Shown: piece by piece, positions 5,685 through 21,685 of the stretch
Position numbering within the stretch: position 1 is the first letter of the stretch
Layout: every line of letters begins with the position of its first letter
Source: Candidatus Omnitrophota bacterium
Lineage (GTDB): Bacteria; Omnitrophota; Gorgyraeia; VGKH01
DNA length: 64,000 bases
Direction of reading: 5' to 3'
NCBI GenBank assembly: GCA_022703055.1
Contig: JAKLEP010000001.1
Location: 218,850 to 282,849, forward strand
The notes under the pieces: model-generated
The model's database searches: none
The model's input: the letters and a program-made list of their open reading frames with translations, nothing else
Told to the model about the DNA's origin: nothing
Translations under genes and position numbers: made by a program

Positions 5685-6812
5685 ATGGTAAAACTTTCAG
5701 ATTTCTTTAGAAAAGAAGACGAGCCGCAAAAAGAGCCTAAGGGAGATACCCCGGAGGAGAAAGAGCAAAAACCGGCAGCTCCTCCTATTAGGTCTCTTCC
5801 TGAGAAATCTTCCATATCCATTCCCAAGCAAGAGCTAAAAAAAGAATTGCCTTCGCAAGTTGAGTCATCCGAAAAACCAGCCGTTAAAACGGTGGATTTG
5901 GTAAAGGACAATGTTTGCGCCTTAGGCGTAGATAAGACAGGCGTTCTTTATGTTGAGTGCCTTAAGTTGAGTGAAGAAATCTTGAATAGAGTCCAGGCGG
6001 GGCAGACGATTTCAATCATTGAAATCAAAAATAAGACAGATAAGCTGGTTGAGCAGGTTATTTTGGGCAATTGCGATTTGGCGGGCCTGCTTAATACTCA
6101 CACCGACGAGAATTATCTCTATGCCCATTCTTTGAACGTTTGTATATTGGCTGTTTTGGTGGGACAGGGCTTGGGTTATGACAGGGCAAAATTGCAGGAA
6201 TTGGGAGTAGCTGCGTTTCTGCATGATATCGGTATGACTAAATTCATGGACTTAAGCCAGAAGCCTGTAAAATTTACCAAGGATGAGCATGAGGAAATAG
6301 AAGAGCATGTTGCATTCGGCGCCGAAATTTTAGCTTCCTCTAAAGGCGTTACCGATGCGATAGTTACCGTGGCAAGCCAGCATCATGAATGCGTAAACGG
6401 CAAAGGTTATCCTAAAGGACTTAAGGCAGATGAGATGAGCCAATATGCCAAGATAGTGGCGGCAGTTGATTATTACGAAGCCTTAATGCATCCTCGTTCG
6501 CATCGCGAGAGGTTGAATCCTTACGAAGCGTTGAGGGTGTTAATCGAGAACAAAGAACGTTTTGATTACCGCGTTTTAAAGGTTTTAATCAGGCAAATGG
6601 GCGTATATCCCATAGGAAGCCTTGTGCAGCTCAGCTCAGGAGAAATAGGGATAGTGATAAAGACCAACAGCCAATCCGCACTCAGGCCTATAGTTAAGAT
6701 TTTTTTTGATGCTCAAGGCAAAAAAATTGAGCAGGAAAAGAATATTGACTTAGTAAAATCTCCCACCATATTTATTAAGAAGTCAATCCACGAAAAAGAC
6801 CTAAATTTGTAA
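5685..6812 (+). CDS. HD-GYP domain c-di-GMP phosphodiesterase-like protein
   Basis: HDIGM and HHECVNGKGYPKGL motifs (HD...HHE..G.GYP). The first ~75 aa are a K/E/P-rich, low-complexity region. No obvious SD before the ATG. Confidence 0.8.
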   Translation: MVKLSDFFRKEDEPQKEPKGDTPEEKEQKPAAPPIRSLPEKSSISIPKQELKKELPSQVESSEKPAVKTVDLVKDNVCALGVDKTGVLYVECLKLSEEILNRVQAGQTISIIEIKNKTDKLVEQVILGNCDLAGLLNTHTDENYLYAHSLNVCILAVLVGQGLGYDRAKLQELGVAAFLHDIGMTKFMDLSQKPVKFTKDEHEEIEEHVAFGAEILASSKGVTDAIVTVASQHHECVNGKGYPKGLKADEMSQYAKIVAAVDYYEALMHPRSHRERLNPYEALRVLIENKERFDYRVLKVLIRQMGVYPIGSLVQLSSGEIGIVIKTNSQSALRPIVKIFFDAQGKKIEQEKNIDLVKSPTIFIKKSIHEKDLNL

Positions 6813-6830: not shown

Positions 6831-6859
6831 TTGACAGTCAGAATAAAATAACCTATTAT
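6831..6859 (+). promoter_or_regulatory. sigma70-type promoter of the RiPP-like operon
   Basis: TTGACA (6831-6836), 17-nt spacer, TATTAT (6854-6859). 37 nt upstream of ATG 6896. No other promoter-like or terminator-like element seen until 15605. Confidence 0.6.
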
Positions 6860-6895: not shown

Positions 6896-7405
6896 ATGAA
6901 TAGCATTGAGTTGGTAAGAGAAGCAGTCATTGCCAATGGCAAAGTCATTCTCCCCTTTAGCGGAAAAAGCATGTATCCAACCTTAAAAGATGCGATGGTC
7001 GTGACCATTTCCCGCATTTTGCCGGAATCAATCAGGATCGCCGATATCATAGCCTACCAAGAAAATGACCAAGTAGCAGCTCATAGGGTCATAAAAATCA
7101 AGAGAGACAACGGCGCAATTTCTTTTATAACCAAAGGCGATAACCAGCCTTTCGGCGGTATAGCCGAGGTACGGCAGAAAGATTTAATCGGCAGGATAAA
7201 TTGCGCGTTTTACGCCGATTCCGACGGAAAGAATATCTTAAATGAGAATATAATTTTCCGGTTATTTTACGTTGGCCTTGGCAGGATATATTTATTTTAC
7301 AGAAAAGCTTTAAGAGACCATATGCCCGATTCGCTAAGGTTATTTTTAAAGACATTGGTTGGCAATATTTACTGTTGTTTTCAAGGCTGTTCAAGCAAAG
7401 GTTAA
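6896..7405 (+). CDS. S24/S26 (clan SF) serine peptidase, SipW/archaeal-signal-peptidase-like, without N-terminal anchor
   Basis: 169 aa. SGKSMYPTL (Ser25) matches the signal-peptidase box B nucleophile. AAHRVIKIK (His63, Lys67/69) and ITKGDNQ (aa 78-84) match the HRV / TKGDN boxes of Ser-His type S26B enzymes. The first 20 aa are not a TM helix. Confidence 0.55.
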   Translation: MNSIELVREAVIANGKVILPFSGKSMYPTLKDAMVVTISRILPESIRIADIIAYQENDQVAAHRVIKIKRDNGAISFITKGDNQPFGGIAEVRQKDLIGRINCAFYADSDGKNILNENIIFRLFYVGLGRIYLFYRKALRDHMPDSLRLFLKTLVGNIYCCFQGCSSKG

Positions 7406-7408
7406 TTT

Positions 7409-8554
7409 ATGGTCACCCAATCACAAGAAGAATCCAAGAATAAGTTTAAGCTTAATACCGTTTATCTGTATTTTTCCCAATACTGCAATTTGCGATGCCG
7501 CCATTGCTGGATAGATCCCAAATTTTCTGCAGATAAAACCGTTAAAGACGACGAAGCGGATATCAAGACCATTATTTCCGGCCTCGAAGAGTGCAGGGAA
7601 TTAGGCATGGCTTCAGTCAAGGTTACCGGCGGGGAACCTTTTATCAGGGAAGACATATTTGAGCTGTTATCATATTGTAAAGATAATAAAATCGCTTTGA
7701 ATTTTGAGACCAATGCGACCCTGATTACAAAAAAAGAGGCCAGGGCATTGAAGGAAGCCAATGTCGATATGGTCGCTGTTTCCCTTGATGGCCCCAATGC
7801 GCGTATCCACCAATTATTAAGAGGCGTAGACGGTTCATTTGATAAAGCCATAGAAGGCATAAAATTTCTCCGAGAGGAAGGTTTAAACGTCCAAATAATA
7901 ATCTCCCTTTGGAGAGAAAACAAGGATTACGTTAAATCTACTATTGATTTAGCTCGTTCGTTGGGCGCAAGCTCGGTTAAAGTGAATATCCTGAATTGCG
8001 TAGCCAGGGCCGGCAAACTAGACCAGAAAAAAGAAATCCTGAGCGTAAAAGAGATCTTAGATTTCTACCGCGAGCTTAAAGAAAAGCTTAGCAAGGAGCC
8101 GCCCTTTGCCGTTACTTTCGATATTCCGCCGGCATTCAAGCCCCTGAAAAACGGCAGATTAGGCGATTTGAATTTCTGCGGCATAATGGGAATATTAGGA
8201 ATCCTAGGAAACGGCAGAATTTCAATTTGCGGTATAGGCAGCGTTGTTGATTCGTTAGTATTAGGAGTTATTGGGCAGGATAGAATAAAAGATATTTGGG
8301 ATAATCATCCGATATTGAAGGATATCAGAGAAAATGTCCCTAAGAATCTACAGGGCGTATGCGGAAAATGCATATTAAGATTCTACTGTTTAGGAAAATG
8401 CCGCGCCGAAGCTTTTTACAATCACGGCTCGCTTTTATCGCCTTTGTCTTTCTGTCAGCAGGCATATGACCAGGGCCTTTTCCCGGTTTCTCGGTTACAG
8501 GATGAATTTGGCTTGCAAGACTGCAATGAAGAACTAGCAACAAGCCCGGCGTAG
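7409..8554 (+). CDS. radical SAM / SPASM-domain peptide maturase (1 of 2)
   Basis: 381 aa. CX3CX2C at C26/C30/C33 (YCNLRCRHCW). C-terminal SPASM signature CGKCILRFYCLGKC (Cx2Cx5Cx3C) plus upstream CG...ICG. Starts 3 nt after the peptidase stop. Confidence 0.85.
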   Translation: MVTQSQEESKNKFKLNTVYLYFSQYCNLRCRHCWIDPKFSADKTVKDDEADIKTIISGLEECRELGMASVKVTGGEPFIREDIFELLSYCKDNKIALNFETNATLITKKEARALKEANVDMVAVSLDGPNARIHQLLRGVDGSFDKAIEGIKFLREEGLNVQIIISLWRENKDYVKSTIDLARSLGASSVKVNILNCVARAGKLDQKKEILSVKEILDFYRELKEKLSKEPPFAVTFDIPPAFKPLKNGRLGDLNFCGIMGILGILGNGRISICGIGSVVDSLVLGVIGQDRIKDIWDNHPILKDIRENVPKNLQGVCGKCILRFYCLGKCRAEAFYNHGSLLSPLSFCQQAYDQGLFPVSRLQDEFGLQDCNEELATSPA

Positions 8555-8600
8555 TTAAAAATAGATTATTAATTATTTATCAGAAAGAAAGGAGAAACGC

Positions 8601-8927
8601 ATGAAGAAAGATAGCCAAAGAGGGATAAAACAAAGATATGAAGCCCCCTTAGTTTTTGATATGGGCAGCCCCAACATAAACGTCCTAGGCGTAACGGGTA
8701 AAATGTGTTATACCGGTTCCGGTGGAACAGCTAAATGCCAGGCCGGTTCCGGCGGCTTGGCGGGGATTTGTTCATCGGGCGCAAGCGTTGCTTCTAGCTG
8801 CGCGACAGGAAATGGTTTCGGCAGTTCAAGCTGCGCACCCGGCAGTGCACAAACGACCTGCGGCACGGGAAAGAATGCCAGTGGCACTTGCAGCAAAGGC
8901 AGCCCAGTAATGATCATACAAGAATAG
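8601..8927 (+). CDS. candidate RiPP precursor peptide, Cys/Gly/Ser-rich with 7 C-x-x-G repeats
   Basis: 108 aa. Strong SD AAAGGAGA (8588-8595). Leader-like aa 1-35 containing YEAPLVFDMG. Core aa 36-100 has Cys at 36, 46, 57, 67, 78, 87 and 97, each as C-x-x-G. Located between the two SPASM genes. Confidence 0.7.
   Translation: MKKDSQRGIKQRYEAPLVFDMGSPNINVLGVTGKMCYTGSGGTAKCQAGSGGLAGICSSGASVASSCATGNGFGSSSCAPGSAQTTCGTGKNASGTCSKGSPVMIIQE
8706..8900 (+). repeat. coding repeat: seven ~30-nt (9-11 codon) C-x-x-G units
   Basis: TGT/TGC codons at 8706, 8736, 8769, 8799, 8832, 8859 and 8889. CCGGTTCCGG recurs exactly at 8713-8722 and 8743-8752 (30-nt offset). My hand count gives about 58% GC over 8701-8900, against AT-rich flanks. 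Confidence 0.75.
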
Positions 8928-8937: not shown

Positions 8938-10011
8938 ATGTATTCTGCGCCTTTGAATATATGTTTTGGGATTACCAGCCGTTGCAATTTAAGTTGCAAG
9001 CACTGCATAAACAGGAATATCCCCCATACAGATCCTGATTTGACTACCGAAGAACTATTTCGGGTTATTGATCAGTTGGGCGATGCTAAGGTGTTTCAGG
9101 TGAATATTTTTGGTGGGGAACCATTGACCCATCCTGATTTCTTCCTGATTGTTGAGCGACTGAATAAATATCCCATCAGGCTTACTTTAAACACTAACGG
9201 CACTTTGATTGACAGCAAGATAGCCAAGCGGTTAAAAGAACATAAGATAAGGGGAGTCACGGTGAGTTTCGACGGTTCCTGTCCCGAAGTTATGGACGCG
9301 GCTCGGGGTGTAGGTACTTTTAAGAAAAACATTAAAGGCATAGAGGCTCTTTTGTCAGAAGGTATCTACGTGTTATTGTCCGCGACATTAACCAAGATAA
9401 ACTATAAAGACACGCGGGGCATGACGATGCTGGGTAAAAAATTGGGCGCAAACCTCATCCGTTTTAACCACGTATTTTTCGCTGGCAATGCCGCCTGTTT
9501 TGCCAAAGAGATCTATCTTTCGCATGATGAAGAGTTAGGTACGATTGAAGAAATCCACCGGCTTAACAAAGAATTCCCCGGGTTTATCGATAATTCCAGC
9601 ACTTATTTGTGCCAGAGAGGGAAGTTGGAAGAAATGAAGGATTACGAGCCAGCTTACGATAAAATATCTGTTCCTCCTTGCGGTGCGGCACAGGATAAAT
9701 GCAATATCAGGCCCGACGGCTGGATAACGCCTTGCGAAATAATCTGGGAAGCCAAATGCGGCAACCTAAGAAAGCAAAGTTTTCTTGATATCTGGAGGAA
9801 TTCCAAGCTGATGAATGAATTCAGAAAGACATTAGAGATAGATTTGAACACAATACCCGAATGCAAAGGTTGCAAGTACCAGCTTATCTGTTTTATCGGC
9901 CATCGCTGCGATCCTTATTATTATCCCGGAGGGATCAAGGATCGTTCTGTTTATTGCTGGTTAAATAATGATAAAAAGAAAGGGAAGGTTCTAGATGTCG
10001 TCAAGCGATAA
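8938..10011 (+). CDS. radical SAM / SPASM-domain peptide maturase (2 of 2)
   Basis: 357 aa. CX3CX2C at C16/C20/C23 (RCNLSCKHC). C-terminal Cys clusters CGAAQDKCNIRPDGWITPC and CKGCKYQLICFIGHRC. Starts 10 nt after the precursor stop. Confidence 0.85.
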   Translation: MYSAPLNICFGITSRCNLSCKHCINRNIPHTDPDLTTEELFRVIDQLGDAKVFQVNIFGGEPLTHPDFFLIVERLNKYPIRLTLNTNGTLIDSKIAKRLKEHKIRGVTVSFDGSCPEVMDAARGVGTFKKNIKGIEALLSEGIYVLLSATLTKINYKDTRGMTMLGKKLGANLIRFNHVFFAGNAACFAKEIYLSHDEELGTIEEIHRLNKEFPGFIDNSSTYLCQRGKLEEMKDYEPAYDKISVPPCGAAQDKCNIRPDGWITPCEIIWEAKCGNLRKQSFLDIWRNSKLMNEFRKTLEIDLNTIPECKGCKYQLICFIGHRCDPYYYPGGIKDRSVYCWLNNDKKKGKVLDVVKR

Positions 10012-10261
10012 TCCAAAGGTGAGTTCGAAGATTGTTTACAGGGAAGAATCAGAAGGCGCCCTTTTATTTGACCCGGATACAGGCGCAGTAAAAATTTTAA
10101 ACGATACGGGTAAGTTTATTTGGGCTAACCTCGATGGAAAAACAAACAGGGATTCTTTGGTGGCTAAAATCAAGGAAGCTTTTGATATTTCTGATACAAA
10201 AAAGGTCAAAGAAGACCTGGATAAATTCTTAAGCGATTTGAAGAAGTTAAAGTTTATATAG
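9995..10261 (+). CDS. PqqD-family protein (RiPP recognition element), copy 1
   Basis: 88 aa. ALLFDPDTGAVKILNDTGKFIWANLDGKTNRDSLVAKI... follows the PqqD pattern (x-L-f-d...g..h.LN..a..iW..ldG). Overlaps the upstream SPASM gene by 17 nt. SD AGGGAAGG at 9981-9988. Confidence 0.8.
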   Translation: MSSSDNPKVSSKIVYREESEGALLFDPDTGAVKILNDTGKFIWANLDGKTNRDSLVAKIKEAFDISDTKKVKEDLDKFLSDLKKLKFI

Positions 10262-10307: not shown

Positions 10308-11444
10308 ATGCACGACCTAAAATTAAGCAAGTATATGTATGAGACGTTTGCGATAGGCTCAAATAATCAGCTGCCTATTTCGTCTGTGTGTAATGGGCAA
10401 TGTATTTTCTGCTCTAACAACATGAATCCTTTTACAATTTACCGTGAAGGTTTTCGCCCCCTGGCAGATATTAAAAAGGGCCTGGCGCTTTTAAATGTCG
10501 GGCCGAATGAAGAAATCCGTATCGGCGATAGCCTGCCTGGCAGGATTTCCGAGGGGGAGGCGCTTTTACATCCCGATATCTTAAAGGTTTTAAGGCTGAT
10601 AAGAGAAAGATTCCCCGGCAATGTCATCCAGATGAATACCAACGGGACAATCCTTGAGAAAAGTTTTATAGAGAAATTGATTCCTTTCAAACCGCTCAAA
10701 TTTACCATATCCTATCACTCCGATAATCCGAAATTCTGGTGCAAGATTTTTAAACTTAAGGAGAACAAATATAAAATAGTGCGGGAAGCGTTTTTTAATC
10801 TTTCAAAGAACGGTTTTATTATACAGGCGGCTTTGGTGCCCCTGCCGCATCTGGTTGGCTACGACGATATTGAGAATACTATCAAAGCGATAAATTTTTA
10901 TACTAAGGATGTAATTGTTTACGCTCCAGGCTACAGTTTCAAAGCCACGAAGGAATTAAAAGCATTCCTTAAGTCAGACTACGCGGAGTTGAGCCGTTTT
11001 ATTATAAAGATGAGAAAGAAATACGGCATGAATTTGGAGCTTTTCCCGGACCTCCTCAAGCCGATAGAATTTTTTCCCTACCGTGTAATGCAGAATACTT
11101 TTTTTGCTAAATTCAAAAACGTGCTTTGGCTTTTTTCTGAGGCGGCTTTCGAAAAAGGAAAAAAGGCTTTGCAGGAATGGAATGATTTTGTGCCAAACGA
11201 ACACCATGCCTTCCTTGCAAAGAATGATACCTACCGCGGCAATATTATCTGCAGCGGTTTATTAATGGTGAAGGACTACCGCAAGGCTATCAAAAAGGCT
11301 TTATCAGAGTTTAAGAAACAAGGTATTAAGATCGATTTAATAGTGTTGCCTTCAAATTCATTCGACAGGTATGGTGATGATTTACAAGGAGAGAATCATT
11401 CGAAGTTAAATGAAGAGTTTAAGCTTCCAGTTTGGCTTCGTTAA
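10308..11444 (+). CDS. radical SAM protein without SPASM tail (third rSAM of the operon)
   Basis: 378 aa. CX3CX2C at C28/C32/C35 (VCNGQCIFCSNN). No C-terminal Cys cluster. The C-terminal GNIICSGLLMVKDY segment reminds me of DUF512-type radical SAM proteins, but that is unverified. Confidence 0.65.
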   Translation: MHDLKLSKYMYETFAIGSNNQLPISSVCNGQCIFCSNNMNPFTIYREGFRPLADIKKGLALLNVGPNEEIRIGDSLPGRISEGEALLHPDILKVLRLIRERFPGNVIQMNTNGTILEKSFIEKLIPFKPLKFTISYHSDNPKFWCKIFKLKENKYKIVREAFFNLSKNGFIIQAALVPLPHLVGYDDIENTIKAINFYTKDVIVYAPGYSFKATKELKAFLKSDYAELSRFIIKMRKKYGMNLELFPDLLKPIEFFPYRVMQNTFFAKFKNVLWLFSEAAFEKGKKALQEWNDFVPNEHHAFLAKNDTYRGNIICSGLLMVKDYRKAIKKALSEFKKQGIKIDLIVLPSNSFDRYGDDLQGENHSKLNEEFKLPVWLR

Positions 11445-11478: not shown

Positions 11479-11751
11479 ATGAAAGTTAGACAAGCAAAAG
11501 ATATTTGCACTGGAATTTTCCCGGATGGCCTGGTGATATTCAGTCTAAAAACCTATTGTGCGCATGCATTGAATGACAGTGCCTCTTTGATTTGGAATTT
11601 TTGCAAGAAATCCAGGGCACCAGAGGAAATCGCAAGATTTATCGGCAGAAAATACACGATTGATTACTCTCTTGCCTTAAAAGACGCAGAGAAGTTTATC
11701 GGGCTCCTAGGAAAAAGGGGGCTTCTTGAGAAAACAATGTCTCATGAATAA
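11479..11751 (+). CDS. PqqD-family protein (RiPP recognition element), copy 2
   Basis: 90 aa. ...YCAHALNDSASLIWNFCKKSRAPEEIARFIGRKY..DAEKFIGLLGKRGLLE fits the PqqD winged-helix pattern. Confidence 0.7.
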   Translation: MKVRQAKDICTGIFPDGLVIFSLKTYCAHALNDSASLIWNFCKKSRAPEEIARFIGRKYTIDYSLALKDAEKFIGLLGKRGLLEKTMSHE

Positions 11752-12673
11752 TTTAACTTTAAACATAGCAAATATAAAATTAGACACAGCTTATAGGAAT
11801 ATCGTATCGATCCCTGATCCCTTTAGCGCTTTTAGAGCCAAGACAAATAATCCCGACAAAAATATCTGGCATCTTGAATCTTGCGGCATGTATAAGAAAG
11901 ATAAGCTTAAGGGCAAAGATTTAGCCGCCTGTAAAAAGAAGATTGGTTCAATACGAGAGAGATTCGAATCGGTGAATAGTAAATTATCAGATTGGAAAGA
12001 GAAAGGATATAATCTGGCTCGTCTTCCGTCGTATTATGCTCCTGGCCTTCATCGAATATCGTTTTATTTAAACGACCCGGTAAAAATAGATTTTAAAAAA
12101 AGGCAAATCAAACATTTCTATTTGAGGAATGGCGCCGTTAAACGGTTGGGAGACCTTGACTTTCGTTTAATTTCTTTTGCGTACTCGCAAATCTTGGCTT
12201 CTCAAGAGGGGATGCTTGTCCATTGCGCTTGCGTTGTAAGAAATAAAAAGGCTTATCTTTTCTTTGCCAAAGCGGGCGGCGGCAAGACAACGGTTGCCAA
12301 GTTGTCAAAGAAATATTGTGTTTTAGGAGATGATATAATCGCGGTCAGAAGAAAGAAAAATGGCTTTATTGCATTTCCTACTCCCTGGAGACAAAAAAAA
12401 TTTATCAATCCTAGCCCTAAAACATACGCACCAGTAAAAGCGGTGTTCTTTCTGCATAAATCAAAAAATATATATTTTAAGCCTCTTGCTGCGCAGGAGG
12501 CTTTGATGAGGCTTATTTCGCGGTGCATCCACTTTTTTTTATACACTGAAAATGAGCAGGCTAAAAAGGTATTTTTAACTGCTACGGATTTCTTTAAGAA
12601 AGTCCCGTCCTATGATATGTATTTTAGGAAGAGGGAAAATTTCTGGCCAGCATTAGAAAGAATCATAAAATGA
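11744..12673 (+). CDS. HPr kinase C-terminal-like P-loop protein (putative peptide kinase)
   Basis: GMLVHCACVVRNKKAYLFFAKAGGGKTTVAKLSKKYCVLGDDIIAV parallels the HprK_C core (h.vlv...g.gvLi.G.sG.GKS...L...lvaDD). I chose ATG 11744 (ATGAATAA overlap with the PqqD-2 stop) over the track TTG at 11726. Confidence 0.6.
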   Translation: MNNLTLNIANIKLDTAYRNIVSIPDPFSAFRAKTNNPDKNIWHLESCGMYKKDKLKGKDLAACKKKIGSIRERFESVNSKLSDWKEKGYNLARLPSYYAPGLHRISFYLNDPVKIDFKKRQIKHFYLRNGAVKRLGDLDFRLISFAYSQILASQEGMLVHCACVVRNKKAYLFFAKAGGGKTTVAKLSKKYCVLGDDIIAVRRKKNGFIAFPTPWRQKKFINPSPKTYAPVKAVFFLHKSKNIYFKPLAAQEALMRLISRCIHFFLYTENEQAKKVFLTATDFFKKVPSYDMYFRKRENFWPALERIIK

Positions 12674-14433
12674 ATAAATACGGTTTTAAAAATCTTTTTA
12701 ATTTTCTGAAATTTCTTAAGCCATATTGGAAAAAAGAAGTCTTCGTCTGGCTTTTGACTTTTATTGTGTCGCTGCTTTCGCTTGTCAACCCTATTATTGC
12801 AAAATTAATTATAGATAGGGCGTATCTGGGGAGGGATCTTGGGATTTTTATCAAGCTTGTCATATTAGCAGGTTTGATTTTTGTAATCTCGAATATTGCC
12901 GATATTGTATCTCAGCTTATCTCCGAATATATCGCTTCAAGGACAAAGTTCGATTTACAAAAAAAGATTTTTAGAAAAATAGATAATTTATCTTATAGTT
13001 TCTTTCAGAAGAAGACATCGGGAGAATATATTTACAGGATAAATAATGAAGCAGCGCAAGTAGCTACTTTTATGACGACTTTTTTCCCTAGGCTGCTAGA
13101 TATCATCCCGAGGCTCTTGCTTACCATCGCCATACTATTGTATTTAAATTGGAAGATATGCGTTTTAATCCTTGTTCTGACCTTGTTTTTATATATTCCA
13201 AATTTATTGTTAATCAAAAAGATAATGAAGAAATCGCAGCAGTTGTTGGAAAGCGCTCAGGATATCCTTGAGACCGCCAGAGAAATATTCTCCAATATGC
13301 AGGTAGTTAAGATTTTCGCTAAAGAAAAATATGAGAACCGGACTTTTATAAGCCGTCTCATAAATGACCTAAGAATTGAGATAGCCGACGCCAGATTGCA
13401 GCTTTGGAGTTCCGTCATAAATAATTGGATTAATAGATTAATTTTAGCGGCTATAACTATTTACGGAGGATATAGCATTATCAAGGGCAGTATGACGCTA
13501 GGAAGTTTCACCGCCATTATGATGTATATTGGCCAATTGGTTGGTTTACAGGGAACCTTGAGCAGTTTTTTTGTCAGTTTTTCAATAGGCAATATTTCTA
13601 TCAATAGAATTGCTGAGATTCTAGATTCTTGGCCGCAGGAGGCCGAAGATAAAGATGCGAGGGACTATTTATTGCCTTCCGGGAGAATCGAATTTCAAGG
13701 CGTAAGCTTCGGTTATTATCCCGATAAAAATGTCGTAGATAATTTGAGTTTCAAAATAGACGGTGGCTTGTCAGTAGGCCTAGTTGGGGCTTCCGGCACA
13801 GGAAAGACAACGATAGTCAATCTTGCGGTAAAACTGTACCCGATATCTAGAGGTAAAATATTCATCGGAGATAAAGATATAAAATTTATTAAGAATAATT
13901 CTTTGCGCAGTCAAATCGGCATGGCGATGCAAAAGCCTATTCTTTGGAATGATACCGTGCATAATAATTTAATTTACGGAAACCCCAAGGCGACAAAAGA
14001 CGAGATAGAACGCGCCTGCCGTATCGCCTGCGCCGATGAATTTATCCGGGATCTACCGCAGCAACTTCAAACCACTGTAGATGAGGCAGCTATCAGGCTT
14101 TCCGAAGGGCAGAAGCAGAGGATTTCGCTGGCCCGCGCCATTATCAAGAATCCGAAGATATTAATAATAGATGAGGGAATGTCTAGTCTGGATTCTCAGA
14201 CCGAAGACAGGATTATAGACAATTTAAGACGGGAATGCAGGGATAAAACTATCGTCGTGGTTTCCCACCGTCTATCTACGGTTAAGAAGCTAGACCTGAT
14301 TTATTTTCTGGAAGCTAAGGATAGAATAAGCATAGGTTCTCATGCGCAATTAGTAAAAGATAACGCAAGATACAAGGCTTTATTTGCCAGTCAGCTTGTA
14401 GAAGAAGGGCTAAGTTTAAAATTTGATGTTTAG
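12670..14433 (+). CDS. ABC exporter, fused permease/ATPase (MsbA/ABCB type), no C39 peptidase domain
   Basis: 587 aa. Six-TM N-terminal half. Walker A GASGTGKTT, signature LSEGQKQR, Walker B ILIIDEG. ATGA overlap with the upstream gene. Confidence 0.85.
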   Translation: MNKYGFKNLFNFLKFLKPYWKKEVFVWLLTFIVSLLSLVNPIIAKLIIDRAYLGRDLGIFIKLVILAGLIFVISNIADIVSQLISEYIASRTKFDLQKKIFRKIDNLSYSFFQKKTSGEYIYRINNEAAQVATFMTTFFPRLLDIIPRLLLTIAILLYLNWKICVLILVLTLFLYIPNLLLIKKIMKKSQQLLESAQDILETAREIFSNMQVVKIFAKEKYENRTFISRLINDLRIEIADARLQLWSSVINNWINRLILAAITIYGGYSIIKGSMTLGSFTAIMMYIGQLVGLQGTLSSFFVSFSIGNISINRIAEILDSWPQEAEDKDARDYLLPSGRIEFQGVSFGYYPDKNVVDNLSFKIDGGLSVGLVGASGTGKTTIVNLAVKLYPISRGKIFIGDKDIKFIKNNSLRSQIGMAMQKPILWNDTVHNNLIYGNPKATKDEIERACRIACADEFIRDLPQQLQTTVDEAAIRLSEGQKQRISLARAIIKNPKILIIDEGMSSLDSQTEDRIIDNLRRECRDKTIVVVSHRLSTVKKLDLIYFLEAKDRISIGSHAQLVKDNARYKALFASQLVEEGLSLKFDV

Positions 14434-15604
14434 CAGAAAGACTTCCTCCATAAAATCCTCTCAAATTGAAAATGATTTTTTGATTTCTTGCAGCAGAATA
14501 AATCTCGATGAAAAACAGCGTAGCGAGATAAACAGATTGGCAGGCCTTATATCGAACTGGCGCTCTATAACTTATCGGGCATTAAGGCAGGGCGTCGGTT
14601 CGTTTCTCTATAGCCATTTGTCGGCAATCGGCGAAATTTGGTCAAACTTGTCGGATGACAGTCGTGTTAGCCTGAAGCAGGTTTATTATAATACCTTGAT
14701 GAGGAACACCTCGATTAAGATTGAGCTGCAGAAAGTCATTGCATTATTAAATCAAGCCGATAAGCAAGTTATTGTCTTAAAAGGAGCCGCCCTTTTAGAT
14801 ACCGTATACCAAAATATTGCTCTTCGTCCGATGGTTGATATTGACTTATTGGTAAGAAGGCGTGATTTATCGGAAGTAAAGAATATCTTACAGGATTACG
14901 GATACTGCAAACCCGATTTTCTATCCGATGATAGCCTCGAGAAATTCGGAGGAGAAATCCATCTCTGTAAAAAAGATATATTCCTCGACATACATTCAAG
15001 CCTGTCCCAGTATGAGCGTTTTCAAAATGTTTTCAGGATTGATCTCGACGAGGATATCTGGGAAAAATCGGTCTTAGTCAAAACCGAAGCGGAAGAAAAG
15101 AAAATACTTTGCCCCAATCATCTGCTTATTCATCTATGTCTTCATCAAGCAATGGCTCATTATTTTAGGGGTTTATTTAGGTTTTCTGATCTGCGCGAGA
15201 CGATTTTAACTTATCAGAAAGAGTTGGATTGGAAATATATTTTCGAAAAGGCGGGAGAATATAAAATCAAAAAGATTATTTACTGCAGCTTGAATTTGAT
15301 GGAAGGGATTTTCGGTCCTGTTGTCCCAAGAGATGCTTTAGAGAGGTTGAAACCCCGGCGCATGTTCTTTTCTTTTTCCATAAGGAAGATCCTAAGCCTG
15401 CCGGATCAAGAAATCGGCTTCAGAAAATCTGTAGCTCAGCTTTTTTTAATGGATAGCGTAATGGCTTTACCCATAATTATATTTAGAGGCCTTTTTCCTT
15501 CCAATGAGTGGCTTAAATACAGATACGGTATTAATAAAAATAAAGATTTGGTTTTTTATCGTATCTTTCATCCCTTTATTACCATATTTAATATTCTTTC
15601 CTAA
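14426..15604 (+). CDS. uncharacterised nucleotidyltransferase family protein (PF14907/NTP_transf_5-like)
   Basis: VLKGAALLDTVYQNIALRPMVDIDLLV matches the hallmark LKG.al....Y....R.m.DiDlLV. Overlaps the ABC stop. ATG 14426 preferred over TTG 14423. Confidence 0.65.
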   Translation: MFSRKTSSIKSSQIENDFLISCSRINLDEKQRSEINRLAGLISNWRSITYRALRQGVGSFLYSHLSAIGEIWSNLSDDSRVSLKQVYYNTLMRNTSIKIELQKVIALLNQADKQVIVLKGAALLDTVYQNIALRPMVDIDLLVRRRDLSEVKNILQDYGYCKPDFLSDDSLEKFGGEIHLCKKDIFLDIHSSLSQYERFQNVFRIDLDEDIWEKSVLVKTEAEEKKILCPNHLLIHLCLHQAMAHYFRGLFRFSDLRETILTYQKELDWKYIFEKAGEYKIKKIIYCSLNLMEGIFGPVVPRDALERLKPRRMFFSFSIRKILSLPDQEIGFRKSVAQLFLMDSVMALPIIIFRGLFPSNEWLKYRYGINKNKDLVFYRIFHPFITIFNILS

Positions 15605-15694: not shown

Positions 15695-16756
15695 ATGCAT
15701 AAATTTATGAAAATTTATGACAAAAGGTTTTTTATTGCCATTTTAATTTCTATTTTAGTGAGTTCTTGTGCAACCGCAAAAAGAGAAAAGCAGATTTCCA
15801 GCGATTTAAGAAAAGCCGCATTAAAACTCTCCCAAAAAAATAGTCTTTCCGGGACCAATTATTATACCGTTGACCAAGATGACGTCTTGGATATAACAGT
15901 TTGGAAATCATTAAGTACAAAAAAAGGCGAGGCAGAGGAATATTTTCTTAATGATGGCGATAAGCTGGAGATTTCCGTCTGGCAATGGCCTGATTTATTA
16001 AAAGACGTGGTTGTACGTCCTGACGGGAAGATCTCTTTTCCTTTGATCGGTGATGTCGTTGCTCAGGGTAGGACCTTAACCGACTTGGATAACGAAATTA
16101 CTGAAAAATTATCCGCTTTTATCAAGTCTCCAGAAGTTTCAATAATGATAACGGCTTTCGGAACAGCACAAGAGGGTTTTTTGAGGCCGGAGATAAATTT
16201 CGTCAAAGTTAATGAGTTGAGTACGGAGCAGACGGTGGCTCCCGACGGGAATATTTATTTACCTTTATTCGGAGCAGTCCAGGCCGGAGGCTTAACTTTA
16301 AACCAGCTAAGTTTGAAAATTAAGGAAAAGGCCCTCCAGTTTGTACAGAATCCGGAAGTATCGATTAGCATCAGACAGTTCGGAGGAAGAAAGCTTATTG
16401 TCCTGGGCGAGGTTCTCGACCCGGGAACATATGTCTTTACCGGAGAGGCAACAGTATTGGAGGCTATCGGCTGGGCCGGAGGTTATACCAGAAACGCCGT
16501 TTTAAAGAATGTTTTTGTCATAAGAGGCGATTTGGCTAATCCCCAAGTTTATACTTTGAATTTGCGCGATGTACTGGACAAAAAAAATCTGAGCCAGGAT
16601 TTGAAGATACAGGCTAGAGACGTAGTGTATGTGCCTAGAACTGTTATCTCCGAGGTGAGCCATGTTCTGATGCAGCTGCTTAGTCCTCTAACGAGCTCTT
16701 CTTCGGCGGTATCTGGAATTCAAACAATCAGGGCTGGCACAGGTCCTAAGAAATAA
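15695..16756 (+). CDS. polysaccharide export outer-membrane lipoprotein (Wza/Poly_export + SLBB)
   Basis: Lipobox-like ILVSSC near the N-terminus. VRPDGKISFPLIGDVVAQGRTLTDL and the second copy VAPDGNIYLPLFGAVQAGGLTLNQL are typical Poly_export/SLBB motifs. Confidence 0.8.
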   Translation: MHKFMKIYDKRFFIAILISILVSSCATAKREKQISSDLRKAALKLSQKNSLSGTNYYTVDQDDVLDITVWKSLSTKKGEAEEYFLNDGDKLEISVWQWPDLLKDVVVRPDGKISFPLIGDVVAQGRTLTDLDNEITEKLSAFIKSPEVSIMITAFGTAQEGFLRPEINFVKVNELSTEQTVAPDGNIYLPLFGAVQAGGLTLNQLSLKIKEKALQFVQNPEVSISIRQFGGRKLIVLGEVLDPGTYVFTGEATVLEAIGWAGGYTRNAVLKNVFVIRGDLANPQVYTLNLRDVLDKKNLSQDLKIQARDVVYVPRTVISEVSHVLMQLLSPLTSSSSAVSGIQTIRAGTGPKK

Positions 16757-16757
16757 T

Positions 16758-18677
16758 ATGCCACAATACGAATTAAACATACAAGATTATTTAAGAATTT
16801 TAAGAAAGCGTAAATGGATAATTCTTCTTACCATGGTTTCTACTTTTATCGGTATCATAACTTATAACAATCTGCAGACACCGGTTTATAGCTCAAGCGT
16901 TTCCATAAAGATAGAGGTACGTCAGACGGCTATAACCGCTCTTACCGAGACGATATTAGGCGGAGGCTACGATGTCTTAGCTACCGAACAGAAAGTCCTC
17001 AGCGGCCGTCCGGTGGTGGAGGAAGCTGCAAGGCGCTTACAGCTTTTCGCAAAAAATGCTTCCCAGGACGAAATTGATGTTGTAGTAAGCAATATACAGA
17101 GCGGCTTGGAATCGACAACCGACCAAGTTTCTTCGATTATAGTACTGACTGTGCAATCAGACCAGCCTAAGAAGGCGCGCGATATCGCCAATATGATAGC
17201 GGAGGTCTATATCGAAGAAAATTTAAAACAGAGGAGCAAAGAAGCAACCCAGGTGCGGGAGTTTATCGAGAAACAATTATCCGATGTCGAAACAAGGTTG
17301 CATGCTTCCGAAGATGCCTTGGCAAAATTCAGGGAGAAAGAGGCGGTTACGGGAGAAGCGGTGGGTCTTGAGAATCGTCTTGGTACTCTAAAGTCGCAGT
17401 TATCTGAATTATTGACTAAGGCGACAGAAAAACATCCTGATGTCCAGCGTCTGGAAGAGCAGGTTAGGGAAGTCGAGGACGCGCTGAAGAAATTGCCAAA
17501 GTCCGAATTGGAGTTTGCCAGGCTGCAGCGCGATGTCAATGTTAACGAGAAGCTCTACACGATGCTTAGAGAAAAATTCGAGGAATCCAGGATTTCCGAG
17601 AAAGGGATGGTTTCCCAGGCGACAGTAATTAATCCGGCGGTAGAGCCTCAGGTGCCTATCAAGCCAAATAAAAGATTTGCTGCGGTCGTCGGCATAGTGG
17701 TCGGGTTGATGCTAGGATTGATTTTGGCATTTGTTACTGAGAGTTTGGATACTTCCATCGGAACGATAGAAGATGTCGAGAATTTATTAAAAGTCCCGGT
17801 TTTAGCCATTATCCCGTCGATTAGAACAGAAGTGGCAGATGAGAAGCCTTGGTGGAAGCGCGGCCTCTTTCCTCAAATGCAGCCGACCAAAGAGGAAGAG
17901 AGAGAGGCGGCGCTGTCTGTTTTATTTAAACCTTTATCCCAAATTGCGGAGTCATACAGAATATTAAGGACTAATCTGAAGATATCTGATACTAAAAAGG
18001 CGTTTCTTATTACAAGTTGCGGTCCTCAGGAGGGCAAGACAACCGTCCTGGTTGGGCTAGGTATAACTTTGGCGCAGAAGGGGATAAAGACGCTTATAAT
18101 CGATTCCGATCTCAGGCGCCCGTCAGTGCATAAAAAACTCGGCATTACCAAGGAATCGGGAATAAATGAAATAATTAATAAATCTATGACTTGGCAGGAT
18201 GCGATTAAAGGCCTGCCCGATATTCTGATGGGGGAACTAGGTTTTGACGAAGTTCTAAAGAACCCAGGATTGGATAATTTAAGCATAATTACCTCCGGCG
18301 CATCTTCTAATAACCCTTCAGAGTTGTTGGGCTCTAAAGCCATGGAGTCATTGATAGCCGAGTTTAGAAATAATTTTGATGTAATTCTATTTGATTCTCC
18401 GCCGAGCTTGGCCATAACCGACGCTTCGGTATTAGCGCCCCTGCTTGATGGAGTGGTGATTGTTTATGAGATGGGTAGGACAGCAAGAGCCGCGTTATTA
18501 AGAGCAAAGATTCAATTACAGGCTGTTGGCGCTAACGTCCTTGGGGTTGCGCTTAACCATATTAAGCCGGAAAGCTACGTTGCAACAGGTTATTACCCCT
18601 ATTACTATCATTATAAGTATAAATATGCTGATAAACAAAAAGAGGAAAAGGAATCTCAACATCAGGAGTCAACATAA
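16758..18677 (+). CDS. polysaccharide co-polymerase / BY-type tyrosine autokinase (Wzc/GumC-like)
   Basis: 639 aa. Wzz-like N-terminus with TM and coiled-coil, then a second TM (AAVVGIVVGLMLGLILAFV). P-loop domain with GPQEGKTT, IIDSDLRRP and ILFDSPP. C-terminal Tyr cluster GYYPYYYHYKYKY. Confidence 0.8.
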   Translation: MPQYELNIQDYLRILRKRKWIILLTMVSTFIGIITYNNLQTPVYSSSVSIKIEVRQTAITALTETILGGGYDVLATEQKVLSGRPVVEEAARRLQLFAKNASQDEIDVVVSNIQSGLESTTDQVSSIIVLTVQSDQPKKARDIANMIAEVYIEENLKQRSKEATQVREFIEKQLSDVETRLHASEDALAKFREKEAVTGEAVGLENRLGTLKSQLSELLTKATEKHPDVQRLEEQVREVEDALKKLPKSELEFARLQRDVNVNEKLYTMLREKFEESRISEKGMVSQATVINPAVEPQVPIKPNKRFAAVVGIVVGLMLGLILAFVTESLDTSIGTIEDVENLLKVPVLAIIPSIRTEVADEKPWWKRGLFPQMQPTKEEEREAALSVLFKPLSQIAESYRILRTNLKISDTKKAFLITSCGPQEGKTTVLVGLGITLAQKGIKTLIIDSDLRRPSVHKKLGITKESGINEIINKSMTWQDAIKGLPDILMGELGFDEVLKNPGLDNLSIITSGASSNNPSELLGSKAMESLIAEFRNNFDVILFDSPPSLAITDASVLAPLLDGVVIVYEMGRTARAALLRAKIQLQAVGANVLGVALNHIKPESYVATGYYPYYYHYKYKYADKQKEEKESQHQEST

Positions 18678-18705
18678 TAATTTATATTTTAGGATTGTTT
18701 ATTAG

Positions 18706-18735
18706 AAGGGGATAATTGTCCCCTTTTTATTTTTA
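18706..18735 (+). terminator. intrinsic terminator-like hairpin after wzc-like gene
   Basis: AAGGGGA (18706-18712) / TCCCCTT (18719-18725), 6-nt loop, then TTTATTTTT. It ends 3 nt before the next ORF's ATG. Confidence 0.55.
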
Positions 18736-18737
18736 CT

Positions 18738-20171: not shown

Positions 20172-20192
20172 AATTAATTAATAAAAGATTAT

Positions 20193-21644: not shown

Positions 21645-21685
21645 ATGTTTAAATTCAGATTTTATTTTGCAGAAAGGATCTCTTT

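Follow-up and report, generated by a model that had tools for sequence, protein, structure and literature searches.

A predicted ScmA-like substrate peptide with tandem C-x-x-G units in a divergent SynChlorMet-type radical-SAM cassette of an Omnitrophota bacterium

The precursor gene and its neighbourhood

The window analysed here, a stretch of 64,000 nucleotides from a Candidatus Omnitrophota bacterium, contains a short open reading frame that is flanked on either side by a radical-SAM/SPASM gene (Table 1), the position claimed for it in an earlier note on this DNA. The Shine-Dalgarno sequence AAAGGAGA, which the note had called strong, was confirmed 5 bases before the ATG. Translation reproduced the other features described there: a peptide of 108 residues; Cys at positions 36, 46, 57, 67, 78, 87 and 97, corresponding to spacings of 10, 11, 10, 11, 9 and 10 residues; Gly at position +3 of all seven Cys (CYTG, CQAG, CSSG, CATG, CAPG, CGTG and CSKG); a segment from residue 36 to residue 100 that is devoid of Asp and Glu and carries Lys at positions 45, 91 and 99 only; and the C-terminal tail GSPVMIIQE.

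Table 1. Features of the ScmA-like locus, in window coordinates.
Feature	Position	Strand	Basis and remarks
HD-GYP-type (HD_5) protein, possible regulator	5685..6812	+	Pfam HD_5 E=8.9e-24; conserved upstream neighbour
Best sigma-70-like promoter match, TTGACA-17-TATTAT	6831..6859	+	Consensus match, 11/12; just upstream of first cassette gene
SipW/archaeal-type signal peptidase I homolog, candidate leader peptidase, LppS-like	6896..7405	+	TIGR02228 63.4 bits (above cut-off 51.85)
Radical SAM/SPASM enzyme, ScmF-like, no fused RRE	7409..8554	+	TIGR04251 350 bits (cut-off 400)
Shine-Dalgarno sequence of precursor gene	8588..8595	+	Direct sequence reading
ScmA-like precursor peptide, 108 aa	8601..8927	+	Translation; leader approximately aa 1-35, core from C36
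Candidate leader recognition motif YEAPLVFDMG, aa 13-22	8637..8666	+	Fits family motif Y-E-x-P-x-[LVI]-x-D-[LIFM]
Core: seven units of ~10 residues, C-x-x-G-x-x-(A/P/V)-x-x-x, then hydrophobic tail PVMIIQE	8706..8924	+	Family statistics
Radical SAM/SPASM enzyme, ScmE-like, no fused RRE	8938..10011	+	TIGR04250 163 bits (cut-off 400); Pfam SPASM E=2e-10
PqqD-family RRE no. 1, ScmD-like	9995..10261	+	Pfam PqqD E=2.2e-14; TIGR04248 46 bits (cut-off 100)
Third radical SAM enzyme, accessory	10308..11444	+	Pfam Radical_SAM E=6e-14; CNGQCIFC at aa 28-35, no auxiliary-cluster Cys
PqqD-family RRE no. 2, lasso-B1-like	11479..11751	+	Pfam PqqD E=2.4e-9
ScmC-like, HprK-like P-loop kinase homolog, LppK/PsmK-like	11726..12673	+	TIGR04249 55 bits (cut-off 125); PF27840 ScmC, precomputed
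MsbA-like ABC exporter, no peptidase domain	12670..14433	+	Pfam ABC_membrane, ABC_tran; TIGR02203 314 bits
NTP_transf_5 'uncharacterised nucleotidyltransferase', putative PsmN/LppN-like	14423..15604	+	PF14907 E=2e-43
Polysaccharide export/biosynthesis locus: Wza, Wzc, Wzy-like, flippases, glycosyltransferases, DegT, AsnB	15695..33898	+	Pfam; context

The regularity of the core was compared with chance in 200,000 shuffles of its 73 residues. None of the shuffles placed all seven Cys in C-x-x-G (the maximum was six), only two had all Cys spacings between 9 and 11, and none combined both properties. The low-complexity composition of the peptide could nevertheless suggest a spurious open reading frame in a GC-rich intergenic stretch, as could the empty results of a Pfam/NCBIfam scan and of a word-indexed protein search in which the peptide was the sole query. 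Against such an origin speak the strong Shine-Dalgarno sequence, the tight gene spacing, and four independent assemblies in which the same reading frame was annotated. The closest ortholog, at locus L086, is 63% identical to the window peptide and keeps all seven C-x-x-G units; a pN of 0.25 against a pS of 0.88, given in place of dN/dS because synonymous sites are saturated in this comparison, points to purifying selection. Furthermore, the window peptide resembles the small scmF-adjacent reading frames of other genomes: it scored 41.2 bits against a hidden Markov model of 40 peptides from other ScmF loci, built without the window peptide and without its closest relative, while 1000 shuffles scored 9.9 bits or less. 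Together with the synteny conserved among the loci, these comparisons indicate that the reading frame is a genuine gene under selection, and a spurious origin is effectively refuted already. A phmmer search of 1.84 billion representative sequences returned nine matches, eight of which are true Omnitrophota-type relatives; the top match, P0156 (3071 residues), has no Cys and was rejected as a compositional false positive. The word-indexed search returned 35 matches, all labelled 'hypothetical', when a 42-sequence family alignment was used as the query.

The cassette around the precursor gene probably extends from position 6896 to position 15604. The start of the first PqqD gene overlaps the 3' end of the ScmE-like gene, and the second PqqD gene overlaps the start of the kinase-like gene. 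Upstream, the same HD_5 gene directly precedes the SipW-like gene at three further loci (L006, L087 and L088). The promoter-like sequence listed in Table 1 is the best match in a region in which the number of sigma-70-like sites is not above shuffle expectation. The peptidase, kinase, nucleotidyltransferase and exporter genes of the locus had been overlooked in the earlier note. The SipW-like protein lacks an N-terminal membrane anchor, and its GKSMYPTL motif sets the Ser nucleophile S25, accompanied by H63 and D82; homologs occur in 53 of 80 ScmF loci, and the GxSMxP motif is present in 50 of these 53. For the ScmC-like protein, a single-sequence search of the PDB gave nothing useful and a profile was needed; with a profile of 24 homologs, the best match was the HPr kinase/phosphatase 1ko7 (E=2.2e-6), and the conserved positions comprise H166, G186-K187 (followed by T189) and D202-D203. 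For the NTP_transf_5 protein, PsmN provides a precedent (PMC6993621). The third radical-SAM gene is confined to the window and L086, apart from an occurrence in a different context at L013, where a search for a partner peptide of this enzyme family yielded no convincing candidate.

Membership in the SynChlorMet-type cassettes

The best NCBIfam matches of five cassette neighbours were ScmF, ScmE, ScmD, ScmC and signal peptidase I, the four SynChlorMet equivalog scores all lying below their curated cut-offs (Table 1). The ScmF-like enzyme carries the CxxxCxxC motif and seven conserved SPASM Cys (Pfam SPASM 21.2 versus a cut-off of 21.5), and among its 718 homologs at E<=1e-30 there are many named ScmF by JGI, including ones with approximately 60% identity. 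Counterparts of ScmA (TIGR04252), ScmC (TIGR04249/PF27840), ScmD (TIGR04248), ScmE (TIGR04250) and ScmF (TIGR04251) are thus all present in the window: the peptide is encoded among ScmE-, ScmF-, ScmD (PqqD)- and ScmC-like genes, it is a small Cys/Gly-repeat peptide directly 3' of scmF, and the profile ties it to peptides that match TIGR04252. Differences from the SynChlorMet cassettes concern the gene order, which is SipW-F-A-E-D in the window versus D-E-F-A-C in most loci, the longer leader (23 residues from the motif Tyr to the first Cys versus 18-19), the second RRE and the third radical-SAM gene, and the scores, since every window component falls below its equivalog cut-off and the peptide does not match TIGR04252 even at E<=10 (curated cut-off 35 bits).

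This last difference is shared widely. The L086 ortholog reaches 8.1 bits against TIGR04252 and the best of 20 other individually scored members 25 bits; because none of these 20 attains 35 bits, the model is much narrower than the ScmA-like family. On the other hand, 13 of the 42 aligned family members do match TIGR04252 (best E 2.5e-7), and as some ScmF-adjacent peptides thereby match it weakly, the family is already in the databases. Judged from its sequence relationships, the window peptide is the predicted substrate peptide (ScmA-like) of a divergent SynChlorMet-type radical-SAM cassette, a catalogued family. It does not represent an unrecognised type but groups with the ScmA precursors of the cassette described by TIGR04248-04252. 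The SynChlorMet cassette has stood in protein-family databases for more than 10 years as an orphan, and its precursor family extends well beyond the curated model, with the majority of peptides uncalled or labelled 'hypothetical'. In the searchable literature, that is, outside subscription-only papers, we found no characterization of a SynChlorMet product, and two overviews of radical-SAM RiPPs do not mention the system; to our knowledge, its product has never been characterized.

ScmA-like peptides were found in 59 of the 80 ScmF loci, which belong to four methanogen lineages and to over ten phyla of bacteria. The reading frame usually lies directly 3' of scmF and is present in two to three copies at several loci. 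The earlier note would have abandoned its proposal if homologous loci lacked a conserved small reading frame with the Cys periodicity; these 59 loci carry one. At the other 21 loci no ScmA-like reading frame was found; at least three of them (L018, L022 and L052) end approximately 400 bp or less 3' of scmF, and the remaining ones may use other substrates. A distinct ScmE-type gene accompanies ScmF in 69 of the 80 loci and in 55 of the 59 ScmA-positive ones. Among the latter, ScmC is encoded in 55, PqqD in 53, a SipW-like peptidase in 45, NTP_transf_5 in 33 and an ABC exporter in 31; all five occur together in 22.

Leader motif and core repeat

The leaders of the family share the motif K-x-K-Y-E-x-P-x-[LVI]-x-D-[LIFM]. 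Among 65 members, Tyr is conserved in 88%, Pro in 100%, Leu, Val or Ile at +5 in 79%, Asp at +7 in 45% and Leu at +8 in 60%. The YxxPxLxxxG motif read from the window peptide alone therefore holds in its first part, Y-x-x-P-x-[LVI] being near-invariant, but not in its last, the trailing Gly being conserved in the Omnitrophota-type subfamily only. The window and family motifs both fit the [Y/W]xxPx[L/V/I/F/A] motif that is read by the discrete RREs of lasso and LPP systems (PMC13381572). In line with the lasso-type likeness of leader and RRE that had been claimed, the best solved relative of the second PqqD protein is the lasso RRE TbiB1 (5v1u; E=2.5e-5 over residues 10-84), with which it aligns over its full length. 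The likeness to lasso peptides ends with this combination of a Y-x-x-P-x-L leader motif and a discrete PqqD-type RRE: the genes from 5685 to 20171 include neither a macrolactam synthetase (C) nor a B2 cysteine protease domain, and a lasso peptide identity was rejected. In one delta-proteobacterial subfamily, the leader ends in ...GGGVAYA, a classical A-x-A peptidase site. The description of the peptide as a precursor with leader and repeat core is supported by both the homologous loci and the near-invariance of the leader motif.

Statistics over 383 Cys units of the family revealed Gly at +3 in 86%, a +6 position occupied by Ala (40%), Pro (16%) or Val (10%), and a spacing mode of 10. Ser or Thr occupies +4 or +5 in 65% of units. 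Near-invariance in the core is limited to Cys and Gly+3, and conserved aromatic, Lys or acidic residues are lacking. The number of Cys per peptide varies from 3 to 15. Because 43 of 65 peptides have an odd number, disulfide pairing is disfavoured, and a disulfide-rich peptide was rejected on this ground. Six or more residues follow the last Cys in 60 of 65 peptides, and the length of this tail has a sharp minimum of 6. This minimum and the preference at +6 indicate that more than Cys and Gly matters, and neither is explained by a simple Cys-to-Gly+3 ring.

With its seven free-thiol candidates, small flexible linkers and anaerobic host background, the peptide could also be an unmodified thiol-rich metal-binding or redox peptide, the alternative raised in the earlier note, or else a small folded protein of Cys repeats, in either case linked to the enzymes by proximity alone. 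C-x-x-G at ten-residue spacing is, however, unlike known metal-cluster motifs, and a signal peptide is absent, while the conserved YxxP leader fits motifs bound by RREs. The linkage to radical-SAM, RRE and peptidase genes is kept across phyla, and the highly variable number of units is typical of RiPP cores. AlphaFold2 gave no fold for the window peptide (pLDDT of 84 at residues 11-20 and below 50 in the core), a result used as weak evidence against the folded-domain reading only. We consider a metal-binding, redox or folded role barely credible.

Proposed maturation and comparison with known systems

Among solved structures, both SPASM enzymes have only distant relatives (E of 1e-8 to 1e-11). 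These include PqqE and SuiB, which form C-C bonds, and CteB and SkfB, which form thioethers; since they mix C-C crosslinkers with thioether formers, the reaction is not fixed by homology. The similarity of the SPASM enzymes to AlbA and StsB, like that to SkfB, is distant. A SPASM reaction other than Cys thioether formation would be compatible with a precursor role; it could yield C-C or C-O crosslinks, epimerization or formylglycine-like Cys oxidation, or use the Cys as auxiliary-cluster ligand, with C-x-x-G serving as a recognition or turn element. Consistent with such chemistry, the closest solved relatives of the ScmF-like enzyme are PqqE and SuiB (the latter making a Lys-Trp C-C bond), its second-best NCBIfam matches are tetrapyrrole enzymes and WgkB, and the +6 position is partly conserved alongside the six-residue minimum tail. 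It is at odds with the restriction of near-invariance to Cys and Gly+3, and with the lack of a conserved aromatic, Lys or acidic partner for the known C-C and ether crosslinks, whereas PapB, CteB and the sactisynthases install thioethers on Cys-repeat cores; indeed, we know of no characterized SPASM system with a Cys-repeat core that makes anything else. The anSME formylglycine motif, C-x-P/A-x-R, is absent from the window core. As an account of the precursor, non-thioether chemistry thus appears unlikely.

The reading that we favour, and regard as likely, is an RRE-guided precursor in which the two SPASM enzymes crosslink the C-x-x-G units before phosphorylation, cleavage and export. One or both discrete RREs would dock onto the YxxP leader and offer the disordered core to the two SPASM enzymes, neither of which has an RRE of its own. 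These would act iteratively on each Cys/Gly unit, most likely introducing one intramolecular thioether per unit. A bond from the Cys sulfur to the C-alpha of Gly+3, by analogy with the Cys31-Gly34 ring of streptosactin, comes close to an even chance; another thioether topology, for instance to the +6 residue with Gly as a turn, is a minority expectation, and a non-thioether modification of the units a similarly modest one.

The peptidase, kinase, nucleotidyltransferase and exporter imply phosphorylation and dedicated leader cleavage besides radical-SAM chemistry. The HprK-like ScmC would phosphorylate Ser or Thr, and the nucleotidyltransferase may add to the phosphate so made. T32, located 19 residues past the motif Tyr, is a candidate site because Ser or Thr is invariant there in nine Omnitrophota-type sequences; family-wide, there is no conserved Ser or Thr at a constant spacing from the leader motif, which makes the kinase site speculative. 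The SipW-like peptidase would cut off the leader shortly ahead of the first Cys, at a site predicted between V28 and C36, and the ABC transporter would export the product, whose role is possibly tied to the neighbouring polysaccharide/biofilm locus. Maturation order and candidate sites are thereby made concrete: Y13/P16 for RRE binding, the seven Cys/Gly pairs, T32, and cleavage just before C36. Taken further, the product could be a hybrid RiPP of a kind not seen before, widespread in anaerobic bacteria and methanogenic archaea, which bears a tandem ladder of small rings derived from Cys (seven in this peptide, as many as approximately 13-15 in others) and is polyphosphorylated or phosphoglycosylated, released by the SipW-like peptidase, and handed or covalently joined to the neighbouring exopolysaccharide as a matrix or envelope component; in this full form the proposal is speculative and quite unlikely to hold.

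The phosphorylation and cleavage genes resemble those of the LPP pathway, in which a YxxP leader, an RRE-dependent SpI-like leader peptidase (LppS) and HprK-like polyphosphorylation of core Ser3 have been described (Popov et al., Nat Commun 2026; PMC13381572). LPP clusters are embedded in capsular polysaccharide loci, and were described as Bacillota-restricted, with cores that are not Cys-repeat and without reported radical-SAM enzymes (PMC13381572). The window holds the corresponding gene set, namely a SpI-like peptidase, a discrete RRE (PqqD, twice), an HprK-like kinase, an NTP transferase as putative LppN counterpart and an MsbA-like exporter, likewise beside a polysaccharide locus. The SynChlorMet cassette regularly contains five genes of this kind, a set whose experimental characterization as the LPP pathway dates from 2026 and which had been considered confined to Bacillota. 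Of the LPP leader consensus YxxPxVLxHQxIxFETxxS, the window leader contains only the YxxPx[LV] part (YEAPLVFDMGSPNINVLGVTG), HQxIxFET and the following xxS being absent. The completeness of the gene set and the Ser/Thr-rich core might indicate a linear phosphorylated (and glycosylated) peptide of the LPP type, the radical-SAM genes serving another substrate such as a polysaccharide or cofactor. Two or three radical-SAM genes argue against a plain LPP product, however. The peptide gene lies directly 3' of scmF in most loci and between two SPASM genes here, the Cys-repeat peptide is accompanied by a distinct ScmE gene in nearly all loci (55/59), and the adjacency of RRE-less SPASM enzymes to discrete PqqD genes is usual where the substrate is a peptide; the LPP cores and clusters that have been published, moreover, differ as stated above. 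We judge an LPP-type product very unlikely.

Several radical-SAM peptide systems were set aside by comparison with the window core and its maturases. For the ACGX-repeat and GeoRSP systems, maturase scores are far below the cut-off of 400 bits (64-70 for rSAM_ACGX, 109-138 for the GeoRSP rSAM), and none of 42 family peptides matches the respective peptide models. Freyrasin follows the same logic of an iterated small motif, with six in-line C-X3-D thioethers formed by the single SPASM enzyme PapB (PMC9413430); in freyrasin and SCIFF the acceptor is an Asp or Glu side-chain carbon, in contrast to the acid-free window core. The earlier statement that the core does not correspond to SCIFF- or freyrasin-type peptides agrees with this and with the score of 66.7 bits against the PapB model NF047865 (cut-off 340). 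No SCIFF peptide model was matched either, and a ranthipeptide identity was rejected.

The closest parallel to crosslinked C-x-x-G units that we favour is streptosactin (GggA/GggB; StsA/StsB), a type II 'unnested' sactipeptide with SPASM-made i-to-i+3 sactionine rings of the Cys-x-x-Ser and Cys-x-x-Gly type, including Cys31-x-x-Gly34 (PMC8172795). It is the only characterized precedent for C-x-x-G as a donor/acceptor unit, and the ScmF-like enzyme scores 101 bits against the StsB model (E=5.9e-29; cut-off 625). Streptosactin differs in having two rings in a 14-mer, another leader, a radical-SAM enzyme of 400+ residues, and neither a kinase nor a SpI module. If the Cys-x-x-Gly rings are real, no group of streptosactin-type 'unnested' sactionine peptides would be larger or more widely distributed than the ScmA-like peptides, which would also be the first RiPP class to unite radical-SAM crosslinking with HprK-type phosphorylation.

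The window peptide and its family

Translation of the 108-residue ORF yielded MKKDSQRGIKQRYEAPLVFDMGSPNINVLGVTGKMCYTGSGGTAKCQAGSGGLAGICSSGASVASSCATGNGFGSSSCAPGSAQTTCGTGKNASGTCSKGSPVMIIQE. Its seven Cys residues (36, 46, 57, 67, 78, 87 and 97; spacings of 10, 11, 10, 11, 9 and 10) are each followed by Gly at +3, and residues 36-100 contain no acidic residue, which bears out the periodic, acid-free core of C-x-x-G units described in the earlier note. The ATG lies 5 bases downstream of AAAGGAGA at 8588-8595. When the 73 core residues were shuffled 200,000 times, no shuffle had all seven Cys in C-x-x-G units (maximum six), and only two had spacings all within 9-11. Gene calls in four independent assemblies, among them a 500-kb JGI contig and an NCBI MAG, give the identical peptide, which ends in a hydrophobic tail (PVMIIQE; AVIMLEV in its closest relative, from locus L086). 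A GC-rich, terminator-like hairpin predicted within the CDS at 8736-8762 (10 pairs, then GGGATTTGTT) is probably a by-product of repeated GGT, GGC and TGC codons, not a true terminator.

Homologs of the neighbouring ScmF-like protein number 718 at E<=1e-30; the nearest are from Candidatus Omnitrophota MAGs (61-74% identity), and for many the JGI name is 'SynChlorMet cassette radical SAM/SPASM protein ScmF'. Using an alignment of 23 ScmF-like homologs, we fetched 80 genome loci (L numbers) from Omnitrophota, Desulfobacterota/Syntrophales, Chloroflexota, Chlorobiaceae, Lentisphaerota, Nitrospirota, Aminicenantes, Acidobacteriota, Planctomycetota and other bacteria, and from methanogens (4 of 80: Methanogenium, Methanospirillum, Methanotrichaceae and Methanoregulaceae). 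A mechanical ORF scan revealed in most loci a small ORF with at least four Cys and at least three C-x-x-G units, usually less than ~100 bp 3' of scmF. A family HMM built from 40 scan peptides, with the window peptide and its closest relative left out, scored the window peptide at 41.2 bits (1000 composition-preserving shuffles, <=9.9 bits) and matched nothing else in a six-frame search of the window. By the same HMM, 59 of the 80 loci encode such a peptide, several of them (for example, L023, L029 and L045) in two to three copies.

The closest relatives (L086, L088 and L006) share the gene order of the window and carry a 105-125-aa peptide at the equivalent position. The L086 peptide is 63% identical to that of the window and keeps 7/7 units; pN is 0.25 against a saturated pS of 0.88, which indicates purifying selection. 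Homologous loci thus clearly do carry a conserved, Cys-periodic small ORF, the lack of which would have counted against the earlier note, and the precursor-peptide reading is strongly supported by comparative evidence.

The HMM detects no ScmA-like ORF beside the ScmF-like genes of L008, L013, L039 and L047 (ScmF match at 8001-~9100 in these four), L065 and L070, whose flanks are complete; these loci may encode a different, unrecognised substrate peptide. The top phmmer match of an exhaustive search, P0156 (3071 aa), was rejected as a compositional false positive: it is a giant, Cys-free, Thr/Gly/Ser/Ala-rich repeat protein, and cautions against taking E-values at face value with a low-complexity peptide query.

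Leader, core units and their possible chemistry

In 65 family peptides, a Lys-rich N-terminus precedes Tyr (88%; Trp 8%, Phe 5%), which is followed by Glu at +1 (68%), Pro at +3 (100%), Leu/Val/Ile at +5 (79%), Asp at +7 (45%) and Leu at +8 (60%), with variable residues at +2, +4 and +6. The trailing Gly of the proposed YxxPxLxxxG leader is kept only in the Omnitrophota-type subfamily to which the window belongs. The leader of this subfamily contains an insertion, G-x-P-N-[LI]-N-V-x-G, and its Tyr-to-first-Cys distance is 23, against mostly 18-19 elsewhere. Small residues (Gly/Ala) lie 2-4 positions ahead of the first Cys. In the delta-proteobacterial subfamily (P0121-P0149, alignment A4; L023 9991-10314), the leader ends in ...PYEPPRLLDLGGGVAYA (...GGGVAYA), 2-3 residues before the first Cys. 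A-x-A is the textbook cleavage site of type I signal peptidase; these peptides have no hydrophobic signal sequence despite it.

Among 383 core units, Gly occupies +3 in 86% and position +6 is Ala in 40%, Pro in 16% and Val in 10%; Ser or Thr is present at +4 or +5 in 65%. Only Cys and Gly+3 are near-invariant. The most frequent Cys-Cys spacings are 10 (132), 11 (61), 9 (38) and 12 (21). Peptides contain 3-15 Cys, and since the number is odd in 43 of 65, the Cys residues are not there for disulfide pairing. At least six residues nearly always follow the last Cys (C-terminus at +6 in 18, +7 in 15, +8 in 15 and shorter in five), and the functional unit therefore reaches to about +6. AF2 modelling from a 28-sequence alignment left the core unfolded (pLDDT <50), with confidence of 84 only near the leader motif, which agrees weakly with what would be expected of a RiPP precursor. 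Cys-dense ScmA-like peptides (10-15 Cys, with CC, CxC and CGC runs) that depart from the 10-residue period are found in L026 (7345-7704 and 8878-9309), L084 (3758-4165) and L060 (9149-9406), and could be a subclass of their own that undergoes different chemistry.

To our knowledge, streptosactin is the one characterised precedent for a Cys/Gly+3 pair. Here a SPASM enzyme closes two unnested S-Cα rings, Cys25-Ser28 and Cys31-Gly34 (PMC8172795), and PapB, a single SPASM enzyme, installs six in-line small thioether rings on repeated C-X3-D motifs (PMC9413430). Based on these two precedents we favour one thioether per unit. By analogy, a link from Cys to the Cα of Gly+3 has a little under an even chance of being the product; a thioether of other topology has perhaps one chance in five. 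We give chemistry other than thioether formation a similar chance, because both SPASM enzymes have only distant solved relatives of mixed chemistry (PqqE, SuiB, CteB, SkfB; E 1e-8 to 1e-11) and because the need for residues out to +6 is not explained. The proposed ladder of thioether rings is plausible, with a precise precedent.

Gene neighbourhood and proposed pathway

The peptide gene lies, as noted earlier, between two radical SAM/SPASM genes, within a cassette encoded on one strand in which several neighbouring pairs overlap.

Features of the cassette and its flanks in the window
Feature	Position	Strand	Remarks
HD-GYP (HD_5) protein	5685-6812	+
Archaeal/SipW-type signal peptidase I homolog	6896-7405	+	TIGR02228, 63 bits, above cut-off; GKSMYPTL nucleophile motif; lacks N-terminal anchor
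Radical SAM/SPASM, ScmF-like	7409-8554	+	Best match ScmF, 350 bits
ScmA-like peptide	8601-8927	+
Radical SAM/SPASM, ScmE-like	8938-10011	+	Best match ScmE, 163 bits
PqqD no. 1	9995-10261	+	Best match ScmD
Third radical SAM protein	10308-11444	+	Lacks SPASM
PqqD no. 2	11479-11751	+	Overlaps start of kinase-like (ScmC) gene
ScmC-like protein	11726-12673	+	Best match ScmC
MsbA-like ABC exporter	12670-14433	+	Lacks peptidase domain
NTP_transf_5 nucleotidyltransferase	14423-15604	+
Polysaccharide export/synthesis locus	15695-41126 (sampled to 33898)	+	Uninterrupted, directly 3' of cassette

The polysaccharide locus encodes Wza, Wzc, a Wzy-like protein, two flippases, GT1/GT4/GT9 glycosyltransferases, a DegT aminotransferase, methyltransferases and AsnB. 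The top promoter-like match of the region (11/12, a consensus match only) lies directly before the peptidase gene at 6831-6859. The HD-GYP gene directly 5' of the peptidase gene recurs in all close relatives (L006 6331-7440, L087 7287-8417, L088 7365-8447), a conservation that hints at c-di-GMP-linked control of cassette and EPS locus. The third radical SAM protein carries CNGQCIFC at residues 28-35 and lacks auxiliary-cluster cysteines; the JGI gene call starts at M39, with which the cluster-binding motif would be lost. Apart from the window, only L086 has this gene; L013 (9294-10961) has a homolog of 555 aa beside an ScmF-like gene and PqqD, with no ScmA-like peptide.

A profile of 24 ScmC homologs found HPr kinase/phosphatase 1ko7 as its best solved match (E=2.2e-6). 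Because the alignment spans the catalytic segment H...GxGxL..G.sGxGKS(T)...L.DD, in which H166, G186-K187 and D202-D203 are (near-)invariant, we assign ScmC as an HprK-like P-loop protein. Such a kinase, LppK, polyphosphorylates core Ser3 of the linear polyphosphorylated peptides (LPPs) described in Bacillota (Popov et al., Nat Commun 2026; PMC13381572). LPP clusters, which sit inside capsular polysaccharide loci, also encode a SipW-like SpI leader peptidase (LppS), a discrete RRE (LppB), an MsbA-like exporter (LppD) and an uncharacterised NTP transferase (LppN); the leader starts with YxxPxVL, and LppS cleavage requires its presentation by the RRE (PMC13381572).

We propose that one or both discrete RREs bind the Y-x-x-P-x-L leader; a fused RRE cannot fit either SPASM enzyme because the Radical_SAM domain begins at residues 12-21. 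The ScmF-like and ScmE-like enzymes would then iteratively modify the C-x-x-G units; ruminococcin C reportedly sets a precedent for two sactisynthases per cluster. ScmC would phosphorylate Ser/Thr, a candidate being T32 at Tyr+19, where Ser/Thr is invariant in nine Omnitrophota-type sequences (the LPP phospho-Ser is Tyr+18), and NTP_transf_5 may extend this phosphate in the manner of PsmN acting on pseudomycoidin (PMC6993621). The SipW-like peptidase would take off the leader and the ABC transporter export the product. PqqD no. 2 aligns full-length with the lasso RRE TbiB1 (5v1u, E=2.5e-5). Lasso+LPP hybrid clusters likewise have two RREs (PMC13381572), and on that analogy the two PqqD proteins may each be assigned to one module, radical-SAM or kinase/peptidase.

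Comparison with SCM and LPP systems

TIGR04252, the NCBIfam model for 'SynChlorMet cassette protein ScmA' (49 positions, cut-off 35 bits), matched 13 of 42 aligned family members (best E 2.5e-7). The window peptide gave no match at E<=10, its closest ortholog scored 8 bits, and none of 20 further members scored singly reached the cut-off; the model is short and narrow. In public databases, family peptides are 'hypothetical' or the gene is not called. The searchable literature, with subscription-only papers outside it, yielded no paper on the SCM cassette or its product.

Of the 59 ScmA-positive loci, 55 encode ScmC, 53 PqqD, 45 an S26/SipW-like peptidase, 33 NTP_transf_5 and 31 the exporter; 22 have all five, and many are truncated. 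Across all 80 ScmF loci the peptidase was found in 53, with the GxSMxP nucleophile motif in 50. By gene content, the LPP gene set is thus a regular part of SCM loci. The peptidase, outside the five TIGRFAM SCM families, usually directly follows ScmC (for example, L056 10479-11111 and L043 12426-13022). In L088, three PMT_2 (GT-C type) genes (14823-17743 and from 18979), two between the exporter and NTP_transf_5 and one after the latter, could glycosylate the peptide or its phosphate.

A cluster of radical SAM, PqqD and Cys-repeat genes is unsurprising to a RiPP specialist. What is new is the extent of the precursor family, most members of which the curated model misses, the definition of its unit, and the previously unreported link from SCM cassettes to the LPP pathway; the SCM system, widespread and uncharacterised, is now directly testable. 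LPPs have been called Bacillota-restricted, and radical SAM enzymes go unmentioned (PMC13381572); the window holds the whole LPP gene set, adjoining a polysaccharide locus as in LPP clusters. LPP cleavage at Tyr+15 would be compatible with a first ScmA Cys at Tyr+18-19 (23 in the window). The feature itself is a divergent variant of the SCM/ScmA system, already known in databases and experimentally orphan: its genes run peptidase-F-A-E-D..., as opposed to D-E-F-A-C-peptidase in most loci, its leader is longer, its tail is hydrophobic, it has two RREs where canonical loci have one and an extra third radical SAM gene, and none of its cassette proteins reaches the curated SCM cut-off.
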